DNA from: a virus
Taxonomy: Duplodnaviria; Heunggongvirae; Uroviricota; Caudoviricetes
DNA: 5,916 bases
Virus record (IMG/VR): IMGVR_UViG_2703718798_000018
Reading direction: 5' to 3' (one strand)
Notes under the pieces: model-generated
Database searches by the model: none
What the model was told of the DNA's origin: nothing
The model's input: the letters and a program-made list of their open reading frames with translations, nothing else
Translations under genes and position numbers: made by a program
Part shown: one piece after another, positions 1-5,916 of the stretch
How the letters are laid out: each line of letters starts with the position of its first letter
Position numbering within the stretch: the first letter of the stretch is position 1

Positions 1-252
1 TTACCATATTTCGTCACCCGCAGGGGTGGATTTACCCCAGACATCCTGCTCGCTAAGTTCCGCGGCGTTCATGTCACACTGTGCCAGCAGTTCATCAAGC
101 GAGTAGCGCCTGGAGATGGGTGTCAGAATCAGTTGGTTGTTGCTCACCTGCGCTTCCACGCTCTGCCCCGGCTGTAAGTTAAGTTCTTTCATTACGATAT
201 TGGGAATGACCATACCTGCACTGTTCCCCCATCTTTTTATGGTAATACGCAT
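1..252 (-). CDS. chpS: ChpS (ChpBI) antitoxin of the chpSB toxin-antitoxin pair, MazE-like; complete, stop codon at 1-3
   Basis: Translation from the ATG at 252 (MRITIKRWGNSAGMVIPNIVMKELNLQPGQ...DEIW, 83 aa) matches my recollection of E. coli K-12 ChpS essentially residue for residue. AAGGAG sits 6 nt upstream on the minus strand. The ORF track's 85-aa form starts at an upstream GTG (258). Not alignment-verified. Confidence 0.85.
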   Translation of the reverse strand: MRITIKRWGNSAGMVIPNIVMKELNLQPGQSVEAQVSNNQLILTPISRRYSLDELLAQCDMNAAELSEQDVWGKSTPAGDEIW

Positions 253-261
253 CTGCACCTC

Positions 262-541: not shown

Positions 542-1537
542 TTATGGGCAAAATCTGGACAACTCCGCAACCGGATTGAACCTTACCGCGTCCTGGAGAT
601 AATCAGGTGCAAAGTGCGCATAGGTCATTGTCTGCTGAATTGTGCTGTGCCCTAAAATACGCTGAAGGGTAATAATGTTCCCTCCATTTATCATGAAATG
701 AGTTGCGAATGTGTGCCGTAAAACATGCACAGACTGACCGACTGGTAAATCAGGCCGCACAGTCCTTATTGCACTTCTGACTATCGCATAACTGGGGTTC
801 ATTAATCTTCCCGTCGCTTTGACTTTAATCAGAGATTCAAGATCTTTAGCTATAGGAATAACCCGCCGCGATCCATTCTTTGTCTCCATGAAAATAACCT
901 TCCCACCAATTATGTGTTCACCTTTAATATTGGCAACTTCACCCCAGCGCCCGCCTGTAGCCAGGCTTAACAATACAGCCTTAAGATTATCGCCAGATAA
1001 AAGTGCGGTTAGCCTGGGAATATCATCATGTGCAAGATAAGCCATTTCCGGCTGATTAATTGTTAGCTTGCGTATCTCGTGAAACGGGTTATCACCCACA
1101 AACTCTTCAACATCAATCAGCTTTTCAAAGAAACCGCTCATCATTGCACAATAACGATTTACCGTTGACTGCTTAATTCCGCGATTCATTAATTCAAGGC
1201 GATATCTGATAATATTTTTTCGGGTTAAGTGGTCACTTCTGTTAATACCAAGCTCTTGCATATCACGAAGAACCGCTTCAATTCTGACCCGATTCATCGC
1301 GCCATAACGATGATTCTTACCGTGGTACACCCACCACAGTTCCAGAAGATCGCTTAACGCTTTACGTTCAATAGGTTTTTCGACCCAGTCCTTATCGTGA
1401 TAATGCGTCAGAACATGGCGTTCATACATCGCCGCTTCACCACGGGTAGGAAATCGCCGCCGAAATCTTCTTCCTTCAGATCCAGCAGGCCGCACGTCCA
1501 CACAGTATTTGCCATCAGCGAGCTTCTTAATCGACAT
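542..1537 (-). CDS. int: Tyrosine site-specific integrase, P2 Int family (331 aa)
   Basis: N-terminus MSIKKLADGKYCVDVRPAGSEGRRFRRRF and C-terminus HVLRHTFATHFMINGGNIITLQRILGHSTIQQTMTYAHFAPDYLQDA closely resemble P2 Int as I recall it, including the R/H/R/Y catalytic region. Start chosen at the ATG at 1537 with a G-rich RBS; the ORF track's start at 1573 adds 12 residues with no homology support. Confidence 0.9.
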   Translation of the reverse strand: MSIKKLADGKYCVDVRPAGSEGRRFRRRFPTRGEAAMYERHVLTHYHDKDWVEKPIERKALSDLLELWWVYHGKNHRYGAMNRVRIEAVLRDMQELGINRSDHLTRKNIIRYRLELMNRGIKQSTVNRYCAMMSGFFEKLIDVEEFVGDNPFHEIRKLTINQPEMAYLAHDDIPRLTALLSGDNLKAVLLSLATGGRWGEVANIKGEHIIGGKVIFMETKNGSRRVIPIAKDLESLIKVKATGRLMNPSYAIVRSAIRTVRPDLPVGQSVHVLRHTFATHFMINGGNIITLQRILGHSTIQQTMTYAHFAPDYLQDAVRFNPVAELSRFCP

Positions 1538-1603
1538 AAGGAAGCCCCCCAATGAAAACATCATCTTGATCACAATTTTGAGAAATAAAGGCCAGATGGA
1601 CCG

Positions 1604-1903
1604 TTAACCAGTCTTCTTGCCGGAGTGGGATGATTCCGCTTCGCTTTGCCCAATGTGTGCGAGAGCCGGTACCACCTGCCCGGCCTTTGGTTCGACCTCA
1701 TCGAACAAAAACCAGTCACGGTATTTACGGAAACGAGCGTGCCGCAAAAGAAGGATCCCAAAATCAAGAGGCATCTTAGATTTCCCACTTTCATAGCCAT
1801 GATATGTATAGTAATTAATTCCAATTAAATCAGATAGTTCCTTCATTTTCATCCGTTCGGACTCTCTGATAAGTTTTAATTTCTCATTTTGCGGTATTGA
1901 CAT
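1604..1903 (-). CDS. C: Immunity repressor, P2 C-type (99 aa)
   Basis: Translation from the ATG at 1903 is 99 aa, the same length as P2 C. The C-terminal VPALAHIGQSEAESSHSGKKTG resembles the P2 C tail as I recall it. GGAGG lies 11 nt upstream on the minus strand. Position (upstream of int, same strand, divergent from cox) fits P2. Confidence 0.8.
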   Translation of the reverse strand: MSIPQNEKLKLIRESERMKMKELSDLIGINYYTYHGYESGKSKMPLDFGILLLRHARFRKYRDWFLFDEVEPKAGQVVPALAHIGQSEAESSHSGKKTG

Positions 1904-1932
1904 AATTTTTCTAACCTCCAATAATTTTTGTG
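1897..1932 (+). promoter_or_regulatory. Candidate early promoter Pe: -35 TTGACA (1897-1902), 17-nt spacer, -10 AATAAT (1920-1925)
   Basis: Hexamers read directly. The -35 is a perfect consensus and the -10 matches TATAAT at 5 of 6, with optimal spacing, and the orientation points into cox. The -35 overlaps the C start codon. The leftward C promoter could not be placed confidently. Confidence 0.5.
1902..1929. promoter_or_regulatory. Candidate repressor operator: perfect 9-bp direct repeat ATAATTTTT at 1902-1910 and 1921-1929 (19-bp period) bracketing the Pe spacer and -10
   Basis: Repeat read directly from the sequence. P2 C is known to bind directly repeated half-sites around the early promoter rather than a palindrome. 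Assigning these particular repeats as the operator is inference. Confidence 0.45.
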
Positions 1933-2010
1933 TATAGCAACACAAGAATAGTCGCAATTGGTTCTACATGGTCCCTATTCGAAAAAGGGGCCAATAACGG
2001 AGGATACCAG

Positions 2011-2436
2011 ATGCAAGAAGTCACTCAAAACGCGCCTGAATCGCCTGCCGAAACACAGTGCGATCAGTTGACAGATGCGCCAGAAACCGCACACCAAAAG
2101 ACCGGGCGCAAAGCCCCTGAACGCCAGGAAATCAGGCTTTCACAAAACCCTTCTCATCTCCTGTCAAAAGAAGGGTTTGCGATGTATATCGGCAAGACCG
2201 TTGACGCCATCGTGAGCATGGCAAAAGCAGGGAAATTACCCGCTGTGTACATGGCGGATCCCCTCAAACCTGGCGGAAACGCCGAACTTTACATCAACCG
2301 GAAAGCATGGGATGAAGCCTGCGATCGACTCACTGAAAACGCACCGCAAGAATGGCACGAATGGGAAAACCGACTTTTTTTATTTAAGCCAGCAGCTGGT
2401 TCACGGAATAAACGCATCAGTAAAAAAGCTGCGTGA
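2011..2436 (+). CDS. cox: Cox-like excisionase/early repressor with an N-terminal extension of about 50 aa (141 aa total)
   Basis: The core GFAMYIGKTVDAIVSMAKAGKLPAVYMADPLKPGGNAELYINRKAWDEA resembles P2 Cox (about 91 aa) as I recall it. Start chosen at the ATG at 2011 with GGAGG 6-7 nt upstream; the track's 1930 start is a GTG inside the promoter region. Confidence 0.6.
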   Translation: MQEVTQNAPESPAETQCDQLTDAPETAHQKTGRKAPERQEIRLSQNPSHLLSKEGFAMYIGKTVDAIVSMAKAGKLPAVYMADPLKPGGNAELYINRKAWDEACDRLTENAPQEWHEWENRLFLFKPAAGSRNKRISKKAA

Positions 2437-2749: not shown

Positions 2750-3088
2750 ATGACACAGCGACGCAACTTCCGCACTGGCACAGAACACCACGCTAACCGT
2801 TTCTCAACCAGCGCATCACGCAGCAACTCGCACTACAGCCTGCAGGAAACGCACGCCACACCTGACGGGCATCTGGTTAAACAAACCGGTAAACACACCT
2901 GGCTGATTAATGATGCCGGAATTGTCATACACAGAGGCGCACGCAACCCGATTACCGGAAATACCTGTTACTCCCTGACTCGCGGAGATGAGCAGTTCGG
3001 GCAGGATTTCACCCTGCACGAAGCATTAAGAACGGCAGACCGATTAATCAGCGGTCGCAGTTTTCAGCACCCGGAACATCGCCGCTGA
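2750..3088 (+). CDS. Hypothetical early protein (112 aa); start uncertain
   Basis: Only in-frame ATG; the RBS is weak and the N-terminal 40 residues are low-complexity (S/T/R/H-rich). The C-terminal two thirds look more protein-like. Confidence 0.45.
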   Translation: MTQRRNFRTGTEHHANRFSTSASRSNSHYSLQETHATPDGHLVKQTGKHTWLINDAGIVIHRGARNPITGNTCYSLTRGDEQFGQDFTLHEALRTADRLISGRSFQHPEHRR

Positions 3089-3107: not shown

Positions 3108-3350
3108 ATGATCGAAGCCTACAAAATACTTATTAATAATGCGTTGCAGCGTTATCACTTCGAACTCGCAAACCGGGGTGTAACCCGGGACGAAGGACTT
3201 CGTAACTCACTGCGGGGCGCAATTATGGGACTGTATAACTGCGCACTGGGCAGCGATGACCGCGAAGCACTGGAAGAATTAAAAGTTATTGTGGCCGAAC
3301 TGTTTGAAGGTGAAATCGTTGAGCCTTATTTCACAGAGGTAGCAGCATGA
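3108..3350 (+). CDS. Hypothetical early protein (80 aa)
   Basis: ATG with an AAAGGA RBS; its stop overlaps the next start in an ATGA arrangement. Confidence 0.6.
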   Translation: MIEAYKILINNALQRYHFELANRGVTRDEGLRNSLRGAIMGLYNCALGSDDREALEELKVIVAELFEGEIVEPYFTEVAA

Positions 3351-3472
3351 GCGTATTTCTTTCATGGGTGATTCTGATTATTTCCGTGCTTATGGCGATT
3401 GGCATTATGCGAATTATCGAAGCGCTGAAAAATATCGAATCTTTATTTACTGGCGAAGAACGCCGTAAATAA
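3347..3472 (+). CDS. Small hydrophobic peptide (41 aa: MSVFLSWVILIISVLMAIGIMRIIEALKNIESLFTGEERRK), predicted single transmembrane helix; not in the supplied ORF track
   Basis: Translated by hand. The ATG at 3347-3349 overlaps the TGA stop (3348-3350) of the upstream ORF, giving ATGA coupling. A 20-residue hydrophobic stretch is followed by a charged tail; stop is TAA at 3470-3472. Confidence 0.45.
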   Translation: MSVFLSWVILIISVLMAIGIMRIIEALKNIESLFTGEERRK

Positions 3473-3551
3473 ATAACCAACCGGACAGAAAACATTAAAA
3501 CCATCCGCATCTGCGGAGGGCTTCACTCAATCCAGAAACGGAGAAACAGCT

Positions 3552-3830
3552 ATGAGCACCAATACACCTACAGAAATAAACAAACTATTTACCGACCCGG
3601 CGCATATTGAATTGACGCAAAAAACGCTGACTGAAATAACCAATGTACTGGATGAAAGAATATCAGAAATAGATAAAGACAAGCATTTTGCCACCTACAT
3701 GGCCCTGCAAATGCAAAGCATGGCAATGGTGACAGCAAAACAGACCATCAGTGAACTCTATATGAAAAACCTGCGCCTCGAGCGCGAACTGGCAGAACTC
3801 CGGGCACAGTCCGGCCAGTTTTCAGCGTGA
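3552..3830 (+). CDS. Hypothetical early protein (92 aa) with a coiled-coil-like C-terminus
   Basis: ATG with a GGAG RBS; the C-terminus LRLERELAELRAQ has a heptad-like pattern. Confidence 0.6.
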   Translation: MSTNTPTEINKLFTDPAHIELTQKTLTEITNVLDERISEIDKDKHFATYMALQMQSMAMVTAKQTISELYMKNLRLERELAELRAQSGQFSA

Positions 3831-4883: not shown

Positions 4884-5003
4884 GTGATCATCATGCACAC
4901 ACAAAAAAACCGCTTGCCAGCGTTCGCCTGGTCGGGTTACAGTTTTCCCGCACCTCATAAAACGGGTGCCGGGATTTCCACCCCGCCGATAACCAAAGCG
5001 CAC

Positions 5004-5024
5004 AACCGCGCCAGCGGTTTTTTT
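5004..5024 (+). terminator. Candidate intrinsic terminator ending the cox-side operon
   Basis: AACCGC-GCCA-GCGGTT hairpin (6 bp, 4-nt loop) immediately followed by a run of 7 T (5018-5024), about 120 nt downstream of the 184-aa ORF stop. Confidence 0.5.
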
Positions 5025-5065
5025 GTGCGTACTGTATTGCCACGTCTTTTTCGCGTCAGAATTAT

Positions 5066-5141
5066 GGCGGGGCGTACGGGGCCGACTTCGGTCGGGCCGG
5101 GTTCTTTGGTTACCGGTTGTGGAAACCCTGTACGCCTCGCC
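5066..5141 (+). ncRNA. Candidate structured RNA element (about 76 nt): 16-bp closing helix with two G-U wobbles, enclosing a UUCG-capped hairpin and a second short hairpin
   Basis: 5066-5081 (GGCGGGGCGTACGGGG) pairs with 5126-5141 (CCCTGTACGCCTCGCC): 14 Watson-Crick pairs plus 2 G-U, possible only in a plus-strand transcript. Inside are CCGAC-UUCG-GUCGG (5082-5095) and CCGG-N12-CCGG (5097-5116). A possible promoter TTGCCA (5037-5042), 17-nt spacer, AATTAT (5060-5065) lies just upstream. Neither reading frame across it looks protein-like. Prediction only. Confidence 0.3.
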
Positions 5142-5167
5142 ACCCCGAGTTTTCCACCTCTGGATGG

Positions 5168-5184
5168 TGAGTTTTCAAAATTCA
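5168..5184. promoter_or_regulatory. Near-palindrome TGAGTTTTCAAAATTCA upstream of the 75-aa gene; candidate operator or promoter element
   Basis: 8-bp arms with one mismatch around a central C. GAGTTTTC also occurs as a direct repeat at 5147-5154 and 5170-5177. It sits 20-35 nt upstream of the AAGAGG RBS of the ORF at 5204. Confidence 0.3.
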
Positions 5185-5203
5185 CAACCAAAGAGGCCAC
5201 ACC

Positions 5204-5431
5204 ATGGCAAACCGCAAACAACAGCGCGCCCGCGCTGAGCGTCTTCACATCCGGACTGAAATCAACCGCAGACTCCATCGGGCTGCATCTGTCTCCTTCA
5301 TCATGCAGTCAAACGTATTACACCGACTTAACGACGGTATCGCTGCCGGGTATTACGCGGCAGTCTTCAGCTATCTGGCCGAAGACCTGGCAGAACTGCA
5401 AGACCTTATCAACCAGCAACACCACCACTAA
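5204..5431 (+). CDS. Hypothetical small protein (75 aa) with a highly basic N-terminus and an acidic C-terminus ending QQHHH
   Basis: ATG with AAGAGG 7 nt upstream; the N-terminus MANRKQQRARAERLHIRTEINRRLHR is strongly basic (possible nucleic-acid binding). Confidence 0.55.
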   Translation: MANRKQQRARAERLHIRTEINRRLHRAASVSFIMQSNVLHRLNDGIAAGYYAAVFSYLAEDLAELQDLINQQHHH

Positions 5432-5499
5432 ACAACATCCTGAAGCCATCCCGCACCCGTGCGCGGGAGGCTTCCGCACGTCTGTTACCGGAGGTTCTC

Positions 5500-5916
5500 A
5501 TGAAGAACGTTAAGGGACTTTCAGATATTCAGGATTTTTTTAACTGGATGTGGGCAGTGGATCCCCGGCTGGCTTCCCGCCTGAACGACTGGCACGACTA
5601 TTACCGCCGCGCCTGTAAACGGGCCGCCAGACGCGTCACCACATACGGGGATTTCTCCTTCACCGTTGACGACCGTTACCGCGTGGACGTGAAAGGTGAT
5701 GGTGATGGTTTTGGTTTATTTCACATCAACGGAACCGACAGCACCGCCATCAGCTGGTCGTCGTCAGAGATGACGCTTGTTCTGGAAATGACAACGCACA
5801 GCGTGGCCATGAAAGGCATATACACCGCAGAAGACTTTATCGGTGAATACCAGCGCCTTCTCGTGCTGTACCGCGCGGCGTTTCAGGCGGCAACTGCCGG
5901 GGAGTGCGACGCATGA
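5500..5916 (+). CDS. Hypothetical protein (138 aa); complete, stop at 5914-5916
   Basis: ATG with GGAGG 7 nt upstream; no motif recognised. Confidence 0.6.
   Translation: MKNVKGLSDIQDFFNWMWAVDPRLASRLNDWHDYYRRACKRAARRVTTYGDFSFTVDDRYRVDVKGDGDGFGLFHINGTDSTAISWSSSEMTLVLEMTTHSVAMKGIYTAEDFIGEYQRLLVLYRAAFQAATAGECDA

Follow-up and report, generated by a model that had tools for sequence, protein, structure and literature searches.

Does a reading frame of only 41 codons in the early region of a prophage encode a genuine protein and, if it does, what could that protein be doing? This question is raised by a small ORF (Table 1) in a stretch of DNA of 5,916 nucleotides, hereafter the window. A preliminary description singled out its 41-aa product, MSVFLSWVILIISVLMAIGIMRIIEALKNIESLFTGEERRK, as an unannotated hydrophobic peptide from a phage early operon, with one transmembrane (TM) helix, a charged tail and a start codon that overlaps the stop of the preceding 80-aa gene. 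Kil-like host inhibition, superinfection exclusion and type-I-toxin-like activity were named as possible functions.

The early operon of a P88-type prophage

The window covers the left end of an E. coli prophage that is P2-like and, more narrowly, of the P88 type. Among named phages, P88 and its relatives (Peduoviridae, Xuanwuvirus) come closest to it. The prophage adjoins a gene that is presumably chpS, encoding the ChpBI antitoxin, which was named by reading its translation. Pe is the only strong sigma-70-like site on the plus strand upstream of the small gene, as judged by a simple consensus scan that leaves a weak internal promoter active in lysogens still possible. The same scan found no further plus-strand promoter and no terminator between Pe and the small ORF. 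Pe probably drives the genes from cox through DUF4761 and DUF4754 to the small gene, and the placement of the gene in a phage early operon is borne out, since in this P2-like prophage both Pe and cox precede it. The operon of near-identical E. coli prophages continues to a gene for a 'derepression protein' and then to one for a replication endonuclease.

Table 1. Features of the window in and around the early operon
Feature	Coordinates	Strand	Basis
chpS (presumed)	1..258	-	reading of translation
Integrase gene	542..1573	-	
Helix-turn-helix repressor, C-type, divergent from operon	1604..1957	-	
Early promoter Pe, TTGACA-17-AATAAT	1897..1925	+	consensus scan, 11/12 matches
cox, first operon gene	1930..2436	+	Pfam Phage_Cox
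DUF4761 gene	2750..3088	+	
DUF4754 gene, 80 aa	3108..3350	+	PF15946, E 1.3e-15
Shine-Dalgarno-like AGAGG	3335..3339	+	7 nt before ATG, inside 3′ end of DUF4754 gene
Small gene, 41 codons plus TAA	3347..3472	+	ORF; RefSeq CDS match
ATGA start/stop overlap	3347..3350	+	conserved in all intact loci examined
Predicted transmembrane helix, codons 3-21, VFLSWVILIISVLMAIGIM	3353..3409	+	hydropathy, AF2, column conservation
Predicted juxtamembrane amphipathic extension, codons 22-34, RIIEALKNIESLF	3410..3448	+	hydrophobic moment, AF2 helix 2-34
Predicted charged disordered tail, codons 35-41 (TGEERRK), and stop	3449..3472	+	low pLDDT

The early region is not tied to a single site of integration. In JNEC-KY172 (L001) it is otherwise 99% identical to the window, but its neighbour is dmsA and its integrase gene is placed differently. 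One early operon is thus found with different integration modules, next to chpS in one case and next to dmsA in the other. The Cox homologue of the window is long, at 168 aa (174 aa in the gene call of the near-identical H1 record), versus 93-95 aa in Shae_phiSM, PhiR44_2, Chuche and L020. The Phage_Cox domain covers just residues 67-147, and an N-terminal extension precedes it.

About 30-45 nt past the stop codon of the small gene the window carries a single-copy hairpin, aTCCGC-N4-GCGGAgg (3503-3519, plus strand). The same hairpin occurs at 3090-3105 in L003, 4159-4174 in L017, 4158-4173 in L020 and 3399-3414 in L022. Its stem is invariant and its loop variable across divergent lineages, even where the next gene differs, and it is absent from the L002 group, whose homology ends at the small-gene stop codon. 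On the plus strand no U-run follows the hairpin; on the minus strand TGTTTT comes after it and gives it the look of a terminator. Phage 186 has a terminator, tR1, in an analogous place of its operon, just after dhr. The next gene in the window (92 aa, 3552-3830, plus strand) has weak PADLOC matches to the candidate defence proteins PDC-M64B (E 4e-4) and PDC-M64C (E 3e-3), and no Pfam family was found for it. Two Rfam models match further downstream above their gathering scores, isrK at 4950-5024 (plus strand, 64 bits) and C4 antisense RNA at 5060-5147 (plus strand, 83 bits). Both matches fall within a 209-aa ORF (4884..5513), part of which RefSeq annotates as an 'ash family' pseudogene, and the gene for the 'derepression protein' (5204..5431) follows closely. 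The arrangement resembles an RNA immunity or antirepressor control unit of the P1/P7/P4 style, here in a P2-like prophage.

Conservation of and selection on the small ORF

An ORF of 41 codons is by itself within what chance can produce, and we therefore used relatives to judge it. Five lineages were compared over the small ORF (the window type, the L002 group, P88, L017 and L020), with nucleotide identities of 61-85%. Synonymous differences are near saturation (pS 0.30-0.77) versus a non-synonymous pN of 0.11-0.28, with Fisher p-values as low as 4e-6. This gives a pN/pS of about 0.3-0.45 uncorrected and an omega of about 0.1-0.3 after correction. We also considered the overlapping frames. In the other sense frames, including a 34-aa ORF at 3364, pS is below or about equal to pN. 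The antisense frame mimics selection because it shares third positions with the sense frame; its 59-aa ORF (3331..3510, minus strand) contains a stop codon in the L002 lineage and is therefore not conserved.

Recombination joints were also examined at the borders of the ORF. In strain Bongo the identity to the window rises from about 50% to 97-100% at about 3345, and in the L002 group (allele WP_252354339.1) homology to the window stops at 3473, one base past the small-gene stop. Mosaic joints are thus located on both borders of the small gene.

The start signals are conserved in a similar fashion. As the preliminary description stated, the start codon (3347-3349) shares bases with the stop of the DUF4754 gene (TGA, 3348-3350). 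G-rich equivalents of the Shine-Dalgarno sequence (GGGG, GGAG, AGGGG and GGGA) are found at the same distance in all lineages, and the signal is kept although the DUF4754 C-terminus that is encoded there differs. Overlap and G-rich signal are both kept in 14/14 intact DUF4754 loci inspected, which with the window amount to 15 distinct sequence versions. The small ORF is also present in two of these loci where it was missed by the gene caller, and PGAP calls it in every genome listed.

The sole clearly broken copy belongs to phage 503458. In this record (NC_049341.1, L021, positions 125-450) the DUF4754 gene and the small ORF are both frameshifted, the latter by a 4-nt deletion, which points either to prophage decay or to an error in the assembly. 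ORF and overlap are present in all intact relatives, and no case was found in which the ORF has been lost while its neighbours are kept. Taken together, the frame-specific purifying selection, the conserved ATGA and Shine-Dalgarno signals and the recombination joints on the borders argue that the small ORF is a genuine, conserved protein-coding gene. The claim of a real 41-aa ORF at 3347-3472 can be retained.

Translation of the small gene may be coupled to that of DUF4754, as the ATGA overlap suggests. The ORF has an exposed Shine-Dalgarno sequence, starts inside the preceding gene and has no long structured 5′ UTR, and local folds are no more stable than shuffles in four of the five lineages. 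A start-codon hairpin (CAUGA/UCAUG) was considered as a coupling device. It is present in some lineages only, since UCC for Ser6 in L028 and Cys7 in L030 break the pairing, and its z-scores are unremarkable, so it was dropped.

The description of the gene as unannotated is true of the six-frame track only. The gene is already in public databases, as a hypothetical or a membrane protein. The window allele is RefSeq entry WP_000110304.1 ('hypothetical protein'), the O157:H7 allele is WP_000021655.1, and gp07 of phage P88 (YP_009113050.1), a member of the same family, is labelled 'membrane protein'. These proteins share 63-100% identity, the position after DUF4754, the ATGA overlap and the TM core; the P88 and O157:H7 alleles are 37 aa long, versus the full 41-aa form in the window. 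A literature search returned no paper on the small protein or DUF4754, and nothing functional for either WP accession, CP-933T or Xuanwuvirus. The window-type allele is rare, with copies in 23/5426 complete E. coli genomes. The P88-type DUF4754-peptide pair occurs in 1363 of the 5426, O157:H7 included.

Wider searches delimit a narrow family, whose members are peptides of 30-45 aa from P88-like phages (Xuanwuvirus, P2-like). A tblastn search of a phage collection with the small peptide matched 12 phage records at 56-66% identity, and P88-like phages only. When 1.84 billion representative proteins were searched exhaustively with a profile, just 15 clusters matched (20-59 aa; E values of 6.7e-25 to 1e-10 for family members), each recognisably this peptide or its fragments or frameshifts. 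The TM-core consensus of the family is M-S/N-I-F-x-S-W-x-x-L-I-I-S-V-x-x-A-I-G-I-M-R-I-I. The window ORF matches it and has both of the traits that mark the family, homology in the TM core and an ATGA position 3′ of a DUF4754 gene in a Pe early operon. Outside the family, the peptide has no Pfam match at E values up to 1, PADLOC has no match for either the peptide or the DUF4754 protein, the PHROG matches of the peptide are inconsistent (E above 0.04, none of known function), and a PDB sequence search with it gave a chance hit only. The earlier remark that nothing in the sequence says which function applies still holds, and no characterised family is matched.

Predicted helix, conserved face and partner gene

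Residues 3-21 of the peptide have a Kyte-Doolittle mean of 2.74 and a negative sum on the Hessa scale, and they form the top-hydrophobicity 19-mer among the 68 window ORFs of at least 30 aa. The N-terminal flank (MS) is uncharged. The C-terminal flank contains five K/R and four D/E, with K/R confined to this side, and the hydrophobic moment peaks at residues 19-30. AlphaFold2 (AF2) predicts one straight helix over residues 2-34 with no hinge (pLDDT 90-97 over the first 30 residues) and disorder for residues 35-41. The single predicted TM helix with a charged tail, as first described, agrees with this picture. By the positive-inside rule only, the topology would be N-out/C-in, with residues 22-34 in the cytoplasm.

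Within the TM segment the conserved residues are S6, L10, S/A13, A17 and G19. The periodicity of column conservation is helical and heptad-like and peaks at 103-105 degrees per residue (permutation p-value about 0.008, which is approximate because the 15 sequences are related). The conserved stripe consists of I/V3, 6/7 (S6), L10, S/A13, A17, I20, I24 and E31, with G19 nearby, and its small residues (S6, S/A13, A17 and the nearby G19) fall in the membrane part. A specific helix-helix interface would be expected to leave such a trace, one conserved face that continues from the bilayer into a cytoplasmic stalk. The same heptad pattern would also be compatible with self-association into an oligomer or pore.

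The ancestral-type tail has the motif ...FTG[DE]x[RH][RH]K, and the tailed 41-aa form is regarded as ancestral because it is found in four divergent lineages. In the P88 clade the tail is being lost. Nonsense codons end the peptide at position 38 in P88 and O157 and at position 31 in Chuche (leaving 30 aa), and in PhiR44_2 and two separate clusters (P0032 and P0033) a one-base deletion in a T-run results in a 45-aa product with a frameshifted tail. Over codons 31-41 of this clade (L003, L005, L006 and L022) the losses occurred independently and by several routes, with the TM core intact. The tail is thus dispensable in some lineages and eroding in the P88 clade, which places the selected core at residues 1-30.

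The DUF4754 gene invariably sits directly 5′ of the small gene in all intact loci. An extra gene is sometimes found between DUF4761 and DUF4754, but never between DUF4754 and the peptide gene. Across the compared lineages the peptides share 51-78% amino acid identity versus 26-93% for the DUF4754 proteins, and the peptide is usually the better conserved of the two. Furthermore, an identical peptide allele (100% at the amino acid level) occurs behind DUF4754 alleles that are 42% identical, with a recombination joint exactly between the genes. The link between the two genes is therefore positional and probably translational, not allele-specific.

The DUF4754 protein is confidently predicted to form a three-helix bundle with a floppy C-terminus (pLDDT 85.5), and P73 and Y74 are conserved in the flexible C-terminal segment. 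No match to this fold with E below 0.3 was found in the PDB or BFVD, so the fold gives no functional lead. A word-indexed protein search with DUF4754 returned five matches, and a scan of genome contigs with the protein gave no confirmed relative. Database 'DUF4754' proteins of 103-128 aa were considered as natural fusions with the peptide and rejected. They are frameshift read-throughs into other frames, and the sole in-frame fusion is a singleton.

Possible functions of the peptide

The best explanation overall, to which we give a roughly even chance, is that the peptide is an early lytic product that packs against a membrane protein as a host-modulating accessory factor. The small gene would be transcribed from the repressor-controlled Pe in an operon that runs from cox through DUF4761, DUF4754 and the peptide gene to the replication genes. 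As Pe is the only promoter found, with no other promoter or terminator on the plus strand, the peptide would be made on infection or derepression and not in the stable lysogen. Translation would begin at the ATG at 3347, aided by its own Shine-Dalgarno sequence and by ribosomes terminating at the DUF4754 TGA. The product may then be one long helix, with residues 3-21 across the inner membrane and the two-residue N-terminus outside, residues 22-34 as a cytoplasmic amphipathic stalk and a short charged tail at the end; the functional core would be residues 1-30. The conserved heptad face would pack against another TM helix, either of a host inner-membrane protein, the presumed target, or of the peptide itself. 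We suggest that the peptide is a non-essential early factor that modulates a host membrane machine, like the small single-pass regulators of E. coli.

A host-directed role has a precedent, since the early operons of P2-like phages carry fil and dhr in phage 186. The 186 record describes fil as 'overexpression blocks cell division' and dhr as 'inhibits host DNA replication', and both are located just after the switch region. Like the small gene, they are small and follow soon after the lysis-lysogeny switch in the early lytic operon of a P2-like phage. They are non-essential, overlap each other and are annotated as host-directed. Fil (75 aa) and Dhr (66 aa) are nevertheless unrelated to the peptide in sequence, and no long TM-like stretch was noticed on reading their translations. 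A tblastn search of the 186 genome with the peptide gave no match, and for the kil-like inhibition that was first suggested, and that stays a candidate role, no homology of the peptide was found to Fil, Dhr, lambda Kil or any characterised inhibitor.

Small single-pass membrane regulators include MgrB, AcrZ, MgtS and Blr of enterobacteria and SidA of Caulobacter, which is a TM division inhibitor. The peptide shares with this class a length below 50 aa and one TM helix, and its proposed mode of action, in which the conserved face packs against a larger membrane protein, would be a further likeness. Unlike the MgrB-type regulators it is phage-encoded and located inside an operon, and no homology to them was found in Pfam or NCBIfam. 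TatA and TatE also have an N-out TM helix followed by an amphipathic helix, and the NCBIfam TatA model PRK04561 matches the peptide weakly, with E values of 0.004-0.11. We rejected this identity. The scores of 12-17 bits are far under the curated cut-off of 104, there is no match to the Pfam Tat family (MttA_Hcf106) at E values up to 1, and the predicted helix has no hinge. The resemblance to TatA most likely reflects hydrophobic composition only.

Several other roles can be set against an early host-modulating factor. The peptide could be a membrane anchor or partner of the DUF4754 protein, made with it in a coupled fixed ratio, with the stalk recruiting the three-helix protein to the inner membrane. 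This fits the four-base overlap, which is invariant across DUF4754 alleles only 26-61% identical, the lack of any gene between the two (unlike the DUF4761-DUF4754 gap) and the joint frameshifting of both genes in phage 503458, and the conserved flexible segment around P73 and Y74 could serve for docking. An anchor is plausible but less likely than the host-modulating reading, as the same peptide allele follows 42%-identical DUF4754 alleles with the joint between the genes, and so there is no allele-specific co-inheritance. Moreover, P88, Chuche and PhiR44_2 have lost the obvious docking tail to truncation or frameshift, and the DUF4754-peptide 'fusions' in databases, in-frame or out-of-frame, look like frameshift artefacts. 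A membrane-damaging toxin (Fst, TisB, Hok-like or holin-like), which would oligomerise, dissipate the proton-motive force and arrest the host, is quite unlikely. Fst-type toxins have an N-terminal TM helix and a charged C-terminal tail, and the peptide resembles them in size and layout. More generally, type I toxins (Fst, TisB, Hok, Ldr, Ibs) are short and hydrophobic with a charged tail, a form that the peptide shares. Of all ORF products in the window it is the most hydrophobic, and small residues on a conserved helix face would fit self-association. Yet the gene is inside, and apparently coupled to, a long early operon ahead of the replication genes, where early depolarisation would presumably harm the phage. 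Type I toxins differ further in having an antisense RNA gene and an independent promoter. For the small gene we found neither a promoter of its own nor a conserved antisense promoter. Promoter-like sites on the minus strand are no commoner than in shuffles, and their positions are not conserved, with sites that differ or are missing in P88 and O157; Rfam has no antisense RNA over 3300-3550, which includes the ORF. The type-I-toxin-like option of the preliminary description thus lacks its defining architecture and is not supported. Nor does the setting suit a holin or pinholin, as the gene is located between cox and the replication endonuclease gene with no endolysin or spanin neighbour and hence no lysis cassette, and there is no PADLOC or Pfam toxin match.

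Superinfection exclusion is a further candidate. T4 Imm and Sp exclude superinfecting phages during the lytic cycle, and an early factor of this kind would block DNA entry or receptor function. The peptide is a predicted small inner-membrane protein of a temperate phage, P2-like phages often use accessory genes against other phages (old, tin and fun(Z) of P2 are cases in point), and the 186 record labels orf97 'expression from plasmid blocks 186 infection'. The exclusion genes of temperate phages are, however, normally expressed in lysogens, and the small gene is behind a repressed Pe, with no other plus-strand promoter found in the simple consensus scan. This makes the classical lysogen form of exclusion, which had been among the first suggestions, unlikely, the only strong plus-strand promoter upstream being the repressor-controlled Pe. 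PADLOC has no match for the peptide, and no homology or match was found to known exclusion proteins or to known defence or exclusion families, so that we hold an early exclusion factor to be very unlikely too. Finally, the peptide itself could be functionless and the ORF be kept for a cis effect of its translation, on Rho-dependent polarity or on a neighbour, or for a cis-acting DNA site. The ORF is indeed very short, mutations that destroy the tail are tolerated, and a conserved hairpin is found just downstream. But selection acts at the level of amino acids, as the pN/pS and omega values above indicate, the DUF4754 protein is usually the less conserved of the pair, and third positions are almost saturated, whereas the hydrophobic character and specific residues of the peptide do not vary. 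The ORF also ends about 80 nt before the next gene and therefore cannot couple to it. A purely cis-acting role is the most improbable of these alternatives.

A bolder version of the host-modulating reading is that the peptide, by itself or together with the three-helix DUF4754 protein, serves as a dedicated inhibitor that targets a single essential machine in the host inner membrane (a TM component of the divisome or a translocase subunit, for example) through its conserved S6-L10-S13-A17 face. We regard this as unlikely. As it stands, the small gene is a well-supported but ordinary uncharacterised accessory gene of a phage.

Small membrane peptides often escape annotation or keep the label 'hypothetical', and the small gene described here is clearly under selection. 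If the peptide binds a specific host membrane protein, it would be a natural 30-residue ligand or inhibitor for that target. If a host target proves real, this would also provide a first function for the DUF4754 neighbourhood of P2-like early operons. And if the peptide is indeed a dedicated inhibitor, then about a quarter of sequenced E. coli, including O157:H7, would carry a previously unrecognised host-takeover module.
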